Positions 1 through 3,850 of a stretch of DNA of 24,000 bases are shown here, piece by piece (the first letter of the stretch is position 1; every line of letters begins with the position of its first letter). Source of the DNA: Thermithiobacillus tepidarius DSM 3134 (GTDB lineage Bacteria > Pseudomonadota > Gammaproteobacteria > Acidithiobacillales > Thermithiobacillaceae); assembly GCF_048300925.1 (NCBI RefSeq), contig NZ_CP133759.1, one strand, 5' to 3'. The translations under genes and the position numbers were made by a program. Under the pieces are notes generated by a model. The model did not search any database. It was not told the origin of the DNA and worked only from the letters and a program-made list of their open reading frames with translations.

Positions 1-896
1 GCCGCGCACAGCACGCGCTCAAGCAGGCGCTGATCAACCCGGAACCGCTGGATCTCAGCGGGCTGGACTTCGCGGACGTGCGGCCCAGCGCCGCCGGCCC
101 GGCCGGCGCCGCGTCCGGCGATCTGGCCCTGATCCGGGGTGAAGGGCGGCTGCGGGGCACGCTGGCGCCGCTGGAGGCGCAGGCGCTGCGCGCCCATCTG
201 TCGCCCATCGAAATCGCCCACATCCATCTGGAACTCGATGACCCGGGCAGCGCCATCGACATCTTGCGGCGCGGCACCCTCTTCGAGCCGCGCAAGCTGG
301 CCTACCACGTCGAGCTCTTGAAGGTTCTCTACCAGCAGCAGCGGCTCGAAGCCTATGCGGAGGCGCTGCTGTCCCTGTACCTGACCCTGTGGGGCGCCGG
401 GCAGAGCCTGCGCCAGCGCCTGCTCGACCTCGGCTTCCGCCTGGGCCGCCACCCCCTGCTCGAACACCTGCTGGACGTGGATGCCGGCGAAGGCGATCTG
501 GCCCTGCTCGCCAATGCCTGGGGCCTGCATGTGCCGCTGGCTGCCATCCCCTTCAGCAATCCGCCGCTGGTCGAGGAGCGCCTGCGGACGCAGATCAGCA
601 TGGTGGGCAGCGACAGCGACGATCGCATCCTGCAGGAGTTCGACCAATTGCTGGAGTTCGGCCAAGTGGAAGAGGCCATCGACCACCTGGAAAGCGCAGT
701 CCACACCAGCCCGCAGGAAGGCCTGTACTATCTTCCGCTGATGGAAATGTACGAGCGCATGGGCGACCTGAACCGCTTTACCCGCTTTACGGAAAGCATC
801 CTGCACGGAGAGCAGCTGCCTCCGGAAGACACCCTCCGGCTCATGATTGAAGTTGGCGATCGCTTAAAGGGCCAAACCAGTAGACGCGCTGTTTGA
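1..896 (+). CDS. Helical TPR-like repeat protein, 5' end cut by the window edge
   Basis: Frame 3 is open from base 3 to TGA at 894-896, with no stop upstream of the listed GTG at 78. GC3 bias is strong. The sequence is all-helical and repeat-like (e.g. LEFGQVEEAIDHLESAVHTSPQEGLYYLPLMEMYERMGDLNRF). Its stop overlaps the GAGG Shine-Dalgarno (SD) sequence of the next gene. Confidence 0.6.
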   Translation, partial: RAQHALKQALINPEPLDLSGLDFADVRPSAAGPAGAASGDLALIRGEGRLRGTLAPLEAQALRAHLSPIEIAHIHLELDDPGSAIDILRRGTLFEPRKLAYHVELLKVLYQQQRLEAYAEALLSLYLTLWGAGQSLRQRLLDLGFRLGRHPLLEHLLDVDAGEGDLALLANAWGLHVPLAAIPFSNPPLVEERLRTQISMVGSDSDDRILQEFDQLLEFGQVEEAIDHLESAVHTSPQEGLYYLPLMEMYERMGDLNRFTRFTESILHGEQLPPEDTLRLMIEVGDRLKGQTSRRAV

Positions 897-903
897 GGTA
901 TTC

Positions 904-2121
904 ATGACCATTACGCCCTTCCCCACCCGTGAAATCCTCGTGCTGACCGTCGGCATGGACACGCGCAAGCAGGCCGTGTTCCGCATGGCTTTCAAGATGT
1001 ACAGCAAGGCCCAGTACCGGCTGCTGGAGCCCGGCGAGAGTCAACGTCCGCAACTGGCCATCGTCGATATCGACGGGCCCGACGGCATCGGCCTGTGGGA
1101 TCAGTTCCGCGCCGAGCATCCTGAGCTGCCCGCCCTCATCGTGTCGGTGCACCCGGTGGACAACTCGCCGGTGCCGGTACTGCAAAAGCCGGTGCGCATG
1201 GAAAACCTCTTTCCGCAACTGGAGGCCCTGCGCAGCGGCAGGCCGACCGGCGCCCCCCCCGCCGCGCCGATCCAGATCCGGCAGGCCGGTGCCGCCCCGG
1301 CGGCCAGCACTCCGCAGCCTGCGGTCGCGCCTACGGCCAGCCGGCCTGGCGCGAGCGCACCGGCCGCGGGTGGTCCTGCGACGCCGGAGGCAGCTCCGGG
1401 AGCCAACCGGCCCGCGGCCCCTGCCAGCAGCGCCATCTCCGAGCGCTTGGCCGTGGGCATCCGGCCGGAGGACGTGGAATACTTCGATCCGCGGCAAGGC
1501 CTGTTCGGTCTGCTGCAAATGATCCGGCGGGATCGCATTCCCGCCACGGTGGTGGATGCCGGCGGCCGGAAGCTGATGATCGTCCATCCCGAGGAGAACG
1601 AAGTGCGCCTGCTGGTAGCAGAAGAGTCCCTGCAGCAGGCCGCCCGCCGCGAGCAGGATCAGTTCCGGGCCCGCACGCCGCAGGCCGGCGACGAGGACGG
1701 CAGCGGGGCCCTGCGGCAGCTCACCTTCATGGCGCTGCTGTGGCAGGTGGCCATCTGGAGTGCCAACGGCCGCCTCATGAAAACCCTGCCGCTCAATATG
1801 CCCGTGCAGCTCAAGCACTGGCCCAACCTGACGCGCCTGGCCCCCATACCCAACGCCCTGCGCATGGCCGCCTTCCTTGTGCGCTCGCCGGCGCACCCGG
1901 TCCTGATGGCCAAGATGCTGCAGGTGGCTCCGGCCGACATCTTCAACTTTCTGGCCGCCGCGCATAGCCTGGATCTGCTGCAGCTCCCCCAGGCCCGGCC
2001 AGCCACCGAGCGGAGCGAGAGCATGGCCCCGCCCCCGGCCCAGCCGCAGGCCGCGCCGGCCGCCGCCAAGCCGCAGCAGGGCTTCCTGAACCGCTTGCTG
2101 AGGAAAATCGCCGGCCTGTAG
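904..2121 (+). CDS. Receiver-like (degenerate REC) protein with Pro/Ala-rich linker, unknown C-terminal domain and C-terminal amphipathic helix
   Basis: ATG at 904 lies 5 nt after GAGGT. The N-terminal ~110 aa has a CheY-like beta/alpha pattern: ILVLTVGMD / LAIVDIDGPDG / ALIVSVH / VLQKPV with the K-P pair. The acidic DD pair after strand 1 is missing. Residues ~110-175 are low-complexity P/A-rich. The protein ends in QGFLNRLLRKIAGL. Confidence 0.7.
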   Translation: MTITPFPTREILVLTVGMDTRKQAVFRMAFKMYSKAQYRLLEPGESQRPQLAIVDIDGPDGIGLWDQFRAEHPELPALIVSVHPVDNSPVPVLQKPVRMENLFPQLEALRSGRPTGAPPAAPIQIRQAGAAPAASTPQPAVAPTASRPGASAPAAGGPATPEAAPGANRPAAPASSAISERLAVGIRPEDVEYFDPRQGLFGLLQMIRRDRIPATVVDAGGRKLMIVHPEENEVRLLVAEESLQQAARREQDQFRARTPQAGDEDGSGALRQLTFMALLWQVAIWSANGRLMKTLPLNMPVQLKHWPNLTRLAPIPNALRMAAFLVRSPAHPVLMAKMLQVAPADIFNFLAAAHSLDLLQLPQARPATERSESMAPPPAQPQAAPAAAKPQQGFLNRLLRKIAGL

Positions 2122-2193: not shown

Positions 2194-2733
2194 TTGAGAC
2201 AGGACAACAAAATCATCTTTACCGGCCCGGTGGGCGCCGGAAAGACGACCGCCATCGCGGCCATCAGCGACACGGCTCCGGTCAAGACCGACGCGGCGGC
2301 CTCGGACATGACCCTGAACCGCAAGGGCTACACCACCGTCGCCATGGATTACGGCGTGCTCCGCCTGGATGAACAGACCAAAGTGCACCTGTACGGCACG
2401 CCGGGGCAGGAGCGCTTCGACTTCATGTGGGACATCCTGACCAAGGGCGGGCTGGGCCTGGTGCTGATGCTGGACAATACCCGCAAGAACCCGCACAAGG
2501 ATCTGCATTTCTTCCTGAATGCCTTCAAGGACTTCATCGAGCACGTGCCGGTGGTCATCGGGGTGACCAAAACGGACCTGAGCGCTTCCCCCAGCATTAC
2601 CGAATACGCCGAAGCGCTGAGCCAGAAGGGCATGCGCCCACCCATCTTCGAAGTCGACGGCCGCAGCCGCGAGGACGTCAAGAACCTGGTGATGGCATTG
2701 CTCTTTTCCATTGACCCCGGTCTAGAAGGCTAA
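2194..2733 (+). CDS. Small Ras-superfamily GTPase, MglA/CvnD-like
   Basis: TTG start at 2194 is 8 nt after AGGAG (2181-2185). G1 is GPVGAGKT. G3 is LYGTPGQERF, which lacks the Ras Asp. G4 is TKTD. TTVAMDYG...GTPGQERFDFMWD...GLVLMLD matches my memory of conservon CvnD-type GTPases. Confidence 0.85.
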   Translation: MRQDNKIIFTGPVGAGKTTAIAAISDTAPVKTDAAASDMTLNRKGYTTVAMDYGVLRLDEQTKVHLYGTPGQERFDFMWDILTKGGLGLVLMLDNTRKNPHKDLHFFLNAFKDFIEHVPVVIGVTKTDLSASPSITEYAEALSQKGMRPPIFEVDGRSREDVKNLVMALLFSIDPGLEG

Positions 2734-2735
2734 GC

Positions 2736-3371
2736 ATGGCAGTTGAACTCACCCTGGCCGGCGAGCTGTACGCCCAGGCTACCCCCGCCGGCGCCTTTTA
2801 CGCCGTAGCCAGTCCCCAGCCCGACAACAGCCGGCAGACCCTGCTGAGCATCCTGCGCCACGGCGAACACAGCCCGCTCAGCGACGGCCAGGTGCTGGAG
2901 TGGACCGGAGCCGACAGCGTCGAGGACGGTTTGAAGGTATTGTTCCGCCTGCAGCGCCTGGGACTGGTGCGCGGCGTCGAAACTCCCATGCCCGCCCCCC
3001 AGGAGCGCCTGGAGGACGTGCTCCCGGCCCTGATCGGCCGTCTTTCGGACAAGGGCAAGGCGGTGCTGGCGGACGACAACGGTTTCTATCTTGCGGCCAG
3101 CGGCTACCCCCACGAAGCCGCGGAAGAGCTGGCCGGCTTGGCCGGCGACCTGCTGGCCCTGCACGCGCGCCATGGCCGCCTGCTGAAGAACAACCTGAAG
3201 CTGGCCACCGAGGCCTGGGCCCTGGTGGACCCGGCCGGCCGCTCCGAACTCGGCTTCTGGCCGCTGTACATCGGCAAGCAGAATTTCGTGCTCATCATCG
3301 GCGAGACGCCGCGGCTGCAGAATCAGGAATTCGTCACCCTGATCCAGGCGCTGAACAACCGCTATGCCTGA
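2736..3371 (+). CDS. Hypothetical protein; C-terminal half Roadblock/LC7-like, N-terminal half possibly winged-helix-like
   Basis: ATG at 2736 is 2 nt after the GTPase stop, with AGAAGG 6 nt upstream. Residues ~95-211 follow a helix-strand-strand-helix-strand-strand-helix order (LEDVLPALIGRL / KAVLADDNGFYLAASG / EAAEELAGLAGDLLAL / AWALVDP...LGFWPLYIG / NFVLIIGE / EFVTLIQALNNR). The fold assignment is inferred, not demonstrated. Confidence 0.65.
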   Translation: MAVELTLAGELYAQATPAGAFYAVASPQPDNSRQTLLSILRHGEHSPLSDGQVLEWTGADSVEDGLKVLFRLQRLGLVRGVETPMPAPQERLEDVLPALIGRLSDKGKAVLADDNGFYLAASGYPHEAAEELAGLAGDLLALHARHGRLLKNNLKLATEAWALVDPAGRSELGFWPLYIGKQNFVLIIGETPRLQNQEFVTLIQALNNRYA

Positions 3372-3487: not shown

Positions 3488-3850
3488 ATGCGTGAACAGA
3501 TGCTCAAATCCGTCCTCGGTGACCTGAACGGCGCTTCCGCTGATGTCGAGGCCTCGGCGGTCATTTCAACGGACGGACTCACCATCGCCTCGATGCTCTC
3601 GGCCGGGATGGACGAGGATCGGGTCGGCGCCATGTCCGCCGCCATGCTGTCCCTGGGCGACCGGACGGCGGCCGAACTGAGCCGGGGGGAACTGGAACAG
3701 GTGATGGTCAAGGGCGAGAACGGCTACATCCTGCTCATCCATGCAGGCAAGGACGCCGTCCTGACGGTGATCGCCCGCAAGGAAGCCAAGCTGGGCTTGG
3801 TGTTCCTGGATGCCAAGCGCGCCGCCAACAGCATCGCCGAGCTGCTCTGA
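3488..3850 (+). CDS. Roadblock/LC7 domain protein (MglB/CvnB-like)
   Basis: ATG at 3488 is 7 nt after GGAG. The 120-aa product shows the typical Robl_LC7 pattern (VEASAVISTDGLTIAS...DEDRVGAMSAAMLSLGDRTAAEL..GELEQVMVKGENGYILLIHAGKDAVLTVIARKEAKLGLVFLD). The listed ORF start at 2900 is an out-of-frame overlap artefact. Confidence 0.9.
   Translation: MREQMLKSVLGDLNGASADVEASAVISTDGLTIASMLSAGMDEDRVGAMSAAMLSLGDRTAAELSRGELEQVMVKGENGYILLIHAGKDAVLTVIARKEAKLGLVFLDAKRAANSIAELL

Follow-up and report, generated by a model that had tools for sequence, protein, structure and literature searches.

Group 3 MglA systems are widespread, with their accessory family alone amounting to 2,103 clusters at 50% identity, and to our knowledge none of them has been studied biochemically. 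In the survey of Wuichet and Søgaard-Andersen (2014, Genome Biol Evol; PMC4316618), the MglA GTPases of Groups 2–5 are recognized by three motifs: G3 reads GTPGQ, G2 has a threonine where the arginine finger would be, and G5 is DAR-like. [quoted passage not shown] The N- and C-terminal regions of the accessory protein were described as conserved and without a Pfam model, and its linker as variable; the N-terminus was likened to a receiver, a winged helix was predicted by Phyre2 for the C-terminal part, and transcriptional control was suggested as the function (PMC4316618). The only functional hints on Group 3 systems that were found come from Snodgrassella, where Tn-seq indicates that mglB genes aid bee-gut colonization and where mutation of an orphan mglB leads to better colonization of a non-native host (PMC11112851). 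Neisseria, Xanthomonas, and Stenotrophomonas are named as Group 3 carriers (PMC4316618). Acidithiobacillus and the bee-gut Snodgrassella are added to the carriers by the loci fetched for the present analysis.

RomR of Myxococcus xanthus is a polar partner of the MglA/MglB switch that acts together with RomX, and it consists of an N-terminal receiver, a long Pro-rich spacer, and a C-terminal interaction module, the C-terminus being a Glu-rich acidic region. The RomR gene is unlinked to mglA (PMC4316618), and the role of RomR–RomX is itself under revision, from GEF to effector (PMC13408092). A further system for comparison is found in the actinobacterial conservons (CvnA–D; MfpB–E), whose small helix-turn-helix protein (DUF742, MfpC) is reported to be a GEF of the Group 2 GTPase (PMC11343762).

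Gene order and assignment to Group 3

The window analyzed here is a stretch of 24,000 nucleotides from Thermithiobacillus tepidarius DSM 3134. An open reading frame at positions 904–2121 (+ strand) encodes a 405-residue protein and is genuine, as judged from the list of reading frames, its homologues, and its match to the protein of PMC4316618. A Shine-Dalgarno sequence, GAGG, lies at 895–898 (+), 5 nt before the ATG at 904, and overlaps the stop codon of the upstream gene (894–896), which suggests translational coupling of the two genes.

The upstream gene, of which the 3′ part occupies positions 1–896 (+), starts 703 nt upstream of the window (L003:12290) and encodes a 532-residue protein with Pfam matches to TPR_14 and TPR_19. 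This TPR partner has an N-terminal transmembrane segment (residues 17–36, Kyte-Doolittle 3.05) and is itself membrane-anchored. A likeness to the FimV C-terminal motif found no support in NCBIfam or the PDB, and Rfam returned nothing for the 740-nt gap that precedes the TPR gene.

Downstream, positions 2194–2733 (+) encode an MglA-family small GTPase (Ras-like, of Group 3 type) with Pfam matches to ATP_bind_1, Ras, and Roc. MglA is its best sequence match in the PDB and thus its closest solved relative. The translation has a P-loop GPVGAGKT, a G2 with Thr-Thr (YTTV), a G3 of GTPGQ, and DGR, and lacks an intrinsic arginine finger; read against PMC4316618, it agrees with the motif description of Groups 2–5. 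Two Roadblock genes follow on the same strand. The first (2736–3371, +) encodes a 211-residue protein of MglB-1 type with a divergent Roadblock/LC7-like C-terminal half (weak Robl_LC7 match, residues 108–153, E = 0.0038) and is conserved in the fetched loci; the second (3503–3850, +) encodes a 115-residue canonical Roadblock/LC7 protein of MglB-2 type (Robl_LC7, E = 9e-17), with PDB matches to 7f8m (E = 2.8e-24) and CvnB5 3leq (E = 3.3e-9).

The order of TPR gene, accessory gene, GTPase, Roadblock-like gene, and Roadblock gene is kept in essentially all of 75 loci fetched from Acidithiobacillia, Neisseriales, other Betaproteobacteria, and some Gammaproteobacteria, and the GTPases share 56–79% identity across loci. 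By tblastn, a TPR homologue directly precedes the accessory gene in 71 of the 75; in two of the remainder (L066 and L070), the TPR position holds a shorter reading frame that lacks a transmembrane segment, overlaps the accessory start codon, and looks TPR-like by eye. Linkage to the GTPase also holds at the level of genomes. When 151 genomes were sampled across the class, the C-terminal domain of the accessory protein was present in 21, all 21 of which encode the GTPase, and in none of the 127 genomes that lack the GTPase.

The match in gene order and description identifies the 405-residue protein as the accessory protein of a Group 3 MglA system. As in PMC4316618, its gene stands immediately before a Group 3 mglA and two mglB-like genes, the taxa are Beta- and Gammaproteobacteria, including Neisseriaceae, and the protein has conserved N- and C-terminal regions, a receiver-like head, a variable linker, and no Pfam match. 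The winged helix is represented by three helices in the present models, which Foldseek supports weakly, at E-values no better than 1.3, and no feature found here contradicts membership. As for function, we lean toward a membrane-tethered regulator of, or scaffold for, the neighboring GTPase switch, acting by the mechanism proposed in the final section.

The receiver-like N-terminal domain

Residues 10–112 (931–1239, +) form a divergent CheY-like receiver, as indicated by profile comparison with the PDB, AlphaFold2, Foldseek, and conservation. The family profile matches PhoP and other receiver domains in the PDB (E = 1.6e-4), placing D55 on the phospho-acceptor and K95-P96 on the conserved Lys-Pro, while a search with the single sequence reaches NtrC-type receivers at E ~0.1 at best. 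The Pfam model Response_reg (PF00072) gives no match at E up to 0.1 and is precomputed for none of 75 homologues. For the full protein, Pfam and NCBIfam return nothing but a sub-threshold NtrX receiver match, with no RomR-type match in NCBIfam.

The full AlphaFold2 model, a single chain as are all models used here, has a mean pLDDT of 82, with values of 92–97 for the blocks of the N-terminal domain. A Foldseek search with the model returns receiver structures (best E = 1.9e-4, target TM-score 0.67), in agreement with the degenerate receiver that the initial annotation had proposed. The modeled elements run β1-α1-β2-β3-α3-β4-β5-α5, and the complete (βα)5 fold is not reached, α2 and α4 being absent. 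The same shortening is seen family-wide in the spacings, which are 33–36 for D19–D55 and 14 for S81–K95, compared with 44 and 22 in CheY.

The landmarks D55, S81, and K95-P96, singled out from the sequence at the outset, are present and conserved. Among 99 divergent relatives, position 55 is Asp in 87 and Asn in 11, position 81 is Ser or Thr in 86, and K95 and P96 are kept in 98 and 99, respectively. D57 is also conserved, more strongly than D55. The acidic pair after strand 1, which had been called missing, is half retained: its first position is Met or another hydrophobic residue, whereas the second, D19 of Gly-Met-Asp, is invariant in close relatives and acidic in 82 of the 99 distant ones (76 Asp, 6 Glu). 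From its position after strand 1, D19 is the putative equivalent of CheY D13.

Most active-site residues are therefore kept. The initial annotation held that the protein may not be phosphorylated, and the evidence points both ways; phosphorylation of D55 by a histidine kinase encoded elsewhere, or by a small phosphodonor, would switch the activity of the protein. Such a working phospho-receiver would concern the input only and would be compatible with a membrane-tethered regulator. The conservation of D19, D55, Ser/Thr81, and K95-P96 fits it, as does the distribution of conservation within the domain, which peaks in α1 and the β5-α5 segment; in established receivers these form the kinase-docking face. 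We consider it somewhat unlikely, however, given that no kinase gene occurs in any of the 75 loci, that the acceptor is Asn in about one relative in nine and is less conserved than D57, that the first acidic residue is lost, that the Pfam receiver model does not match, and that α4 is absent family-wide, the usual output face of a receiver being α4-β5-α5.

The linkers and the C-terminal domain

The receiver is followed by an Ala/Pro-rich disordered spacer, residues 113–186 (1240–1461, +; pLDDT 39–54). Its low-complexity stretch, already noted from the letters, comprises 71 residues (113–183) with 34% Ala and 21% Pro and is disordered in the AlphaFold2 model; across relatives the spacer varies from 31 to 127 residues.

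Residues 187–365 (~180 residues) constitute the domain that the initial annotation was unable to place. It is folded in the model at pLDDT ~97, and placement proved just as hard here, with no Pfam or significant PDB match. The profile of the domain finds nothing below E = 1 among PDB sequences, Foldseek with the model finds no PDB neighbor below E = 0.5, and Pfam, searched at E up to 10 with the C-terminal domains of 40 members of the family, gives no consistent match. Several candidate identities were rejected. A Roadblock or longin fold for the α/β part, the first guess from the order of secondary structure, yields no Foldseek match below E = 0.5 and no Roadblock structure among the matches, and hhalign assigns a probability of ≤0.2% to kinship with either neighboring Roadblock family. 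DUF742 (PF05331; CvnC, MfpC) matches neither the 40 members at E up to 10 nor the full protein, and a likeness to the SEA complex is not significant (Foldseek E = 3.2).

Two subdomains can be distinguished. The α/β subdomain, residues 187–311 (1462–1836, +), is supported by the model (pLDDT ~97) and by conservation; invariant in it are W280, G289-R290, and the W-P-N-L-T-R motif (residues 306–311, nt 1819–1836). The second, residues 312–365 (1837–1998, +), is a winged-helix-like unit of three helices in the model (318–327, 332–339, and 343–355), with weak Foldseek matches to winged helices such as 2yu3 (E = 1.3). Helix 3, the putative recognition helix, is hydrophobic; among the 99 relatives, Phe, Tyr, Ala, and Ser dominate in it, with a median of 0 Lys/Arg and a net charge of 0. 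The whole winged helix carries a charge of only ~+1.

A second flexible linker, rich in Ala, Pro, and Gln (residues 366–391; 1999–2076, +; pLDDT 48–63), leads from this domain to the C-terminus. Its length across relatives is 14–54 residues.

The C-terminal helix and the proposed role of the protein

The protein ends in a cationic amphipathic helix, QGFLNRLLRKIAGL (2077–2118, +), which its moment, charge, conservation, and MinD-like pattern mark as a candidate membrane-targeting sequence. The initial annotation had called the tail amphipathic and MinD-like; the first description holds, and the second holds against the MinD of this genome. The last 11 residues have a hydrophobic moment of 0.78, the highest of 395 windows in the protein, and a net charge of +3; shuffling yields a moment as high as that of the last 14 residues in 1% of cases; and the tail ranks 3 among 2,931 candidate reading-frame tails in the genome. 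The genome’s own MinD ends in GGFFARLFKRGR, and a pattern of G-F-Φ-x-R-L-Φ-basic-basic (Φ, hydrophobic) is common to both tails. The AlphaFold2 model places a helix at residues 394–404 with moderate confidence (pLDDT ~70), terminal and behind the disordered linker.

The tail is kept in 98 of the 99 divergent relatives, and the HeliQuest-type discriminant exceeds 1.34 in 58 and lies at 0.68–1.34 in 40 more. Moment, positive charge, and hydrophobic face are conserved more than residue identity, as in the variant tails SLFGKILQKISG and MLQRLMSRLAVKE; some polar-face positions are conserved as well, for example the Arg in G-L-L-x-R. As with the membrane-targeting sequences of MinD and FtsA, the helix is short, C-terminal, cationic, amphipathic, and placed behind a flexible segment, whereas the remainder of the protein is unrelated to either. 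It exceeds the MinD tail of the genome in both length and hydrophobicity, with six hydrophobic positions and a moment of 0.78 versus 0.55, so binding may not need dimerization. With every sequence property of the MinD/FtsA type, the tail is probably a membrane anchor.

An amphipathic helix and a TPR protein are both absent from the text of PMC4316618. The conserved C-terminal helix, the loss of α2 and α4 from the receiver, the α/β subdomain that has no PDB neighbor, the non-basic recognition helix, and the transmembrane TPR partner are new relative to that description.

In the proposed mechanism, the C-terminal helix on its flexible linker would bind the cytoplasmic face of the inner membrane, as do the tails of MinD and FtsA, and would thereby keep the folded C-terminal domain, that is, the α/β part with W-P-N-L-T-R and Gly-Arg together with the non-basic winged helix, at the membrane. 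There, the C-terminal domain would engage the MglA-type GTPase, the two Roadblock (MglB-like) partners, or both, either to recruit them or to regulate the nucleotide cycle. The cut-down receiver, with its highly conserved α1 and β5-α5 segments, would be the input or docking end and may contact the upstream transmembrane TPR protein or an unlinked kinase.

The tail might instead be a protein-docking peptide that fits a groove of the TPR protein or lies on the GTPase. TPR domains commonly bind C-terminal peptides, and in Myxococcus the C-terminal helix of MglB docks on MglA. The near-constant TPR gene in front of the accessory gene, counting the TPR-like short reading frames of two further loci, and the conserved polar-face positions such as the Arg of G-L-L-x-R would fit such docking. 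We nevertheless regard it as doubtful: in distant relatives the physical character of the tail outlasts residue identity, and its pattern is that of the membrane tail of the genome’s own MinD. Moreover, gammaproteobacterial loci in which the TPR partner has lost its transmembrane anchor retain the helix, which would there be the sole membrane link.

An unlikely elaboration of the membrane-tethered reading makes the C-terminal domain the catalytic or exchange partner of the Group 3 MglA, active only at the membrane. It would supply an arginine finger (the invariant R290 or R311) or act as a GEF; through the helix, the GTPase and a Roadblock heterodimer would come together as a Ragulator-like membrane platform; and the receiver would take in the input, joined in many relatives by an oxygen-binding di-iron (ODP) sensor. 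If the domain were indeed a GEF or an arginine-finger donor, this would explain how the finger-less MglA proteins of Groups 2–5 accomplish hydrolysis or exchange.

A response regulator whose winged helix binds DNA and whose GTPase module controls expression, as suggested by Wuichet and Søgaard-Andersen (2014; PMC4316618), is very unlikely: the receiver-like N-terminal fold, the three-helix unit that closes the C-terminal domain, the winged-helix domains among the weak Foldseek matches, and the published Phyre2 prediction speak for it, but the putative recognition helix has no net charge and a median of 0 Lys/Arg, the whole winged helix carries only ~+1, Foldseek gives no significant match to a DNA-binding winged helix, no Pfam DNA-binding model matches the full protein or 40 members, and the conserved membrane-type helix would keep the domain off the nucleoid. 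Taken together, a MinD-like tail that is conserved and a winged helix that is not basic point to a membrane-bound switch rather than a transcription factor.

The membrane-tethered regulator or scaffold can be set beside the systems introduced above. The initial annotation had described a peripheral-membrane scaffold with RomR-like architecture. The layout of receiver, long Pro-rich spacer, and C-terminal module, at similar size, and an anchor-type tail sequence bear this out in part, and RomR is a fitting comparison, as the gene lies just before those for an MglA-family GTPase and two MglB-like Roadblock proteins. The acidic C-terminal region of RomR is absent, however; in its place are a folded ~180-residue domain and a helix of charge +3 that would bind the membrane. 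The accessory gene also always adjoins the GTPase gene, unlike that of RomR, and the GTPase belongs to Group 3 and lacks an intrinsic arginine finger. The protein may therefore be called RomR-like in layout, a likeness of description and not of demonstrated descent.

The conservons, whose GTPases form a sister group and have the same atypical motifs, share a Roadblock GAP-type partner, a helix-turn-helix accessory protein, and a membrane-associated complex. Their membrane component is a transmembrane histidine kinase, in contrast to the transmembrane TPR protein and receiver-like protein found here. As an analogy only, the eukaryotic Ragulator-Rag system likewise brings together a membrane-anchored scaffold, Roadblock-fold dimers, and a small GTPase on a membrane surface. 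The 405-residue protein differs in having no LAMTOR1 homology and in its putative anchor, which is an amphipathic helix and not an acyl chain.

The accessory protein and its family

The accessory gene (904-2121, + strand) encodes 405 residues. A GAGG (895-898) lies 5 nt ahead of its ATG and shares bases with the stop codon of the preceding gene. No Pfam model matches the full protein, and the sole NCBIfam match, to the NtrX receiver, is sub-threshold. A word-indexed search returned 74 homologues at E 1e-43 or better, from Acidithiobacillus, Sulfuritortus, Aquitalea, Crenobacter, and Vogesella, a few of which carry the annotation “response regulator”, or even that of a “histidine kinase”. When 1.84 billion representative proteins were searched with a profile, 2,103 clusters matched at E≤1e-3, of which 485 did so at E≤1e-30, mostly of 350-450 residues and matching end to end.

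In 2014, Wuichet and Søgaard-Andersen defined Group 3 of the MglA systems, which occurs in Beta- and Gammaproteobacteria (PMC4316618). Their accessory protein has conserved termini without Pfam models and a variable linker; Phyre2 likens its N-terminus to a receiver and its C-terminal part to a winged helix, and the authors suggested that it regulates transcription. The present protein meets this description at each point tested and is thus a member of a catalogued, uncharacterised family. Amphipathic helices and TPR proteins go unmentioned in the text of that study, and no paper combining these features turned up in the literature searched.

Receiver-like N-terminal domain

The family profile matches PhoP and other receiver domains (E=1.6e-4), placing D55 at the phospho-acceptor and K95-P96 at the conserved lysine-proline. 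An AlphaFold2 model built from 38 sequences is confident (pLDDT 92-97), and Foldseek matches it to receiver structures only, among them AdeR (E=1.9e-4, target TM-score 0.67), CheY, and Spo0A. Its elements run β1-α1-β2-β3-α3-β4-β5-α5; therefore, α2 and α4 are missing. These deletions are a family trait: D19 and D55 are 33-36 residues apart across the family versus 44 for D13-D57 of CheY, and the S81-K95 spacing is 14 versus 22 for T87-K109.

Conservation was counted in 99 relatives, down to ~21% identity. Position 19 is D in 76 and E in 6, position 55 is D in 87 and N in 11, and D57 is found in 98. S or T occupies position 81 in 86, while K95 is present in 98 and P96 in all 99. Within the domain, conservation is highest in α1 and β5-α5. 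The initial annotation was therefore right about the receiver landmarks (D, S, and K-P). It had also called the acidic pair missing, which is true of one half; the other is kept as D19, which we take from its place after strand 1 to be the equivalent of CheY D13.

A classical phospho-switch remains a rival explanation, one compatible with our main reading. The domain keeps most of the residues for receiver phospho-chemistry but has lost part of the α4-β5-α5 face that normally serves for output; none of the 75 fetched module loci contains a kinase gene, and in one gammaproteobacterial branch the acceptor is replaced by Asn. In this Chromatiales and Thiotrichaceae branch (loci L066:5974-7131 and L070:5983-7116), C-N-M-D stands in place of I-V-D-I-D, and the Asp two residues on, the Lys-Pro, and the C-terminal helix are kept. 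Phosphorylation at the canonical site is very unlikely in this branch.

Amphipathic tail and C-terminal domain

After a second linker of Ala/Pro/Gln, the protein ends in QGFLNRLLRKIAGL. Over the last 11 residues the charge is +3 and the hydrophobic moment, on the Fauchère-Pliska scale, is 0.78, the highest among the 395 windows of the protein, and the moment of the last 14 is matched by 1% of shuffles. Ranked against those of all 2,931 candidate coding ORFs in the 2.99-Mb genome, the tail comes third, and only six of the ORFs combine a moment ≥0.70, a charge ≥+2, and a hydrophobicity ≥0.4. An amphipathic, cationic tail is present in 98 of 99 divergent relatives, its character preserved even where residues differ; a HeliQuest-type discriminant is above 1.34 for 58 of them and from 0.68 to 1.34 for the other 40. 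The likeness to MinD proposed earlier is seen with the genome's own MinD, which ends in GGFFARLFKRGR and has the pattern G-F-Φ-x-R-L-Φ-basic-basic (Φ, hydrophobic) in common with the tail. Of the fetched loci in which the 3′ end is complete, just one, in Paludibacterium denitrificans (L030:5977-7335), encodes a protein without this tail; the orthologue there is ~50 residues longer with an unrelated, non-amphipathic end. A frameshift or an error of assembly close to the 3′ end seems to be the cause.

The spacer noted earlier as Pro/Ala-rich low complexity (residues 113-183; 34% Ala, 21% Pro) is disordered in the AlphaFold2 model and ranges from 31 to 127 residues across relatives. It leads to a folded C-terminal domain (CTD, residues 187-365) with pLDDT ~97 in the full model and likewise in a CTD model made separately from 40 sequences (model pLDDT 88.9, pTM 0.79). 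The first part is α/β, with invariant W280, G289-R290, and W-P-N-L-T-R (306-311); the second is modelled as three helices resembling a winged helix. As in the initial annotation, the domain could not be placed: neither Pfam (40 members tried) nor PDB sequences gave a match, Foldseek returned nothing below E=0.5 and only weak winged-helix matches, and profile similarity to the neighbouring Roadblock proteins is absent.

We infer a mechanism in three steps. The tail would tether the protein to the inner membrane; the CTD, acting as recruiter or nucleotide-cycle regulator, would engage the GTPase and/or the Roadblock proteins; and the head, with its well-conserved α1 and β5-α5, would be the input or docking end. 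This agrees in outline with the RomR-like peripheral-membrane scaffold first proposed. Membership of RomR is unsupported, because RomR carries an acidic C-terminal region that is absent here. In a rival reading, the tail would instead bind a protein, either the TPR partner or the GTPase. The protein could also be a DNA-binding regulator, but helix 3 of its winged-helix part, with a family-wide median of zero Lys/Arg, is unlike a DNA-recognition helix.

In Group 2 (actinobacterial conservons), the sister group, the Roadblock protein is reported as GAP; a small helix-turn-helix protein, DUF742 (MfpC), is reported as GEF (PMC11343762).

The five-gene module and related genes

The upstream TPR partner (532 aa; window 1-896 and L003:12290-13888, a stretch extending upstream) has an N-terminal transmembrane helix (residues 17-36), an Ala/Pro linker, and TPR-like repeats. 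In two gammaproteobacterial loci (L066:5232-5981, L070:5250-5990), the partner is only ~247 aa, is without the transmembrane helix, and its gene runs into the start of the receiver-like gene. Shortly upstream of the window, a ~740-nt gap (L003:11553-12290; G000:C1:2837552-2838289 of the source genome) separates the TPR gene from the divergent kdsD-lptCAB genes; its only ORF, of 240 aa, is without a Pfam match, and Rfam gave nothing there at E≤1. The module's promoter and regulatory region may lie in this gap.

Downstream, the small GTPase (2194-2733) has MglA as its best solved relatives and carries the motifs of Groups 2-5 (GTPGQ, T-T in G2, no arginine finger). A 211-aa gene (2736-3371) starts 2 nt past its stop codon; the product has a sub-threshold Roadblock match in its C-terminal half (residues 108-153, E=0.0038) and no match in its N-terminal half. 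The 115-aa protein that follows (3503-3850) is a canonical Roadblock, 60-86% identical across loci versus 36-64% for the 211-aa protein. This five-gene order is kept in essentially all 75 loci, taken from species-representative genomes. Among 151 genomes sampled across the class, the CTD is found in 21, all with the GTPase and usually adjacent to it; three have the GTPase without the CTD, and the other 127, without the GTPase, all lack the CTD.

In the literature searched, functional data on Group 3 systems were found for Snodgrassella only (PMC11112851), in which mutation of an orphan mglB made colonisation of a non-native bee host more successful and mglB genes were beneficial in the gut by Tn-seq. 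Its authors hypothesise a link to type IV pili.

The source genome has two more Group 3-like GTPase paralogues (G000:C1:1819948-1820475 and G000:C1:1987655-1988182, both - strand), 51% and 41% identical to that of the module; tblastn found no Roadblock or accessory homologue within ~6 kb of either. In 27 betaproteobacterial loci, a gene for an ODP-family di-iron protein lies directly upstream of the TPR gene (in L069, 438 aa with a 13-nt gap). The source genome has an ODP gene 270 kb from the module (G000:C1:2569678-2570820; L088:697-1842), paired with an orphan Roadblock/LC7 gene 18 nt after it (122 aa, 32% identical to the 115-aa Roadblock). This ODP protein has a di-iron metallo-β-lactamase fold (E=5e-70) and, at 253 aa, is shorter than the betaproteobacterial ones. 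The placement of the ODP genes suggests that Group 3 MglA switches take input from a sensor of oxygen (O2) or iron.
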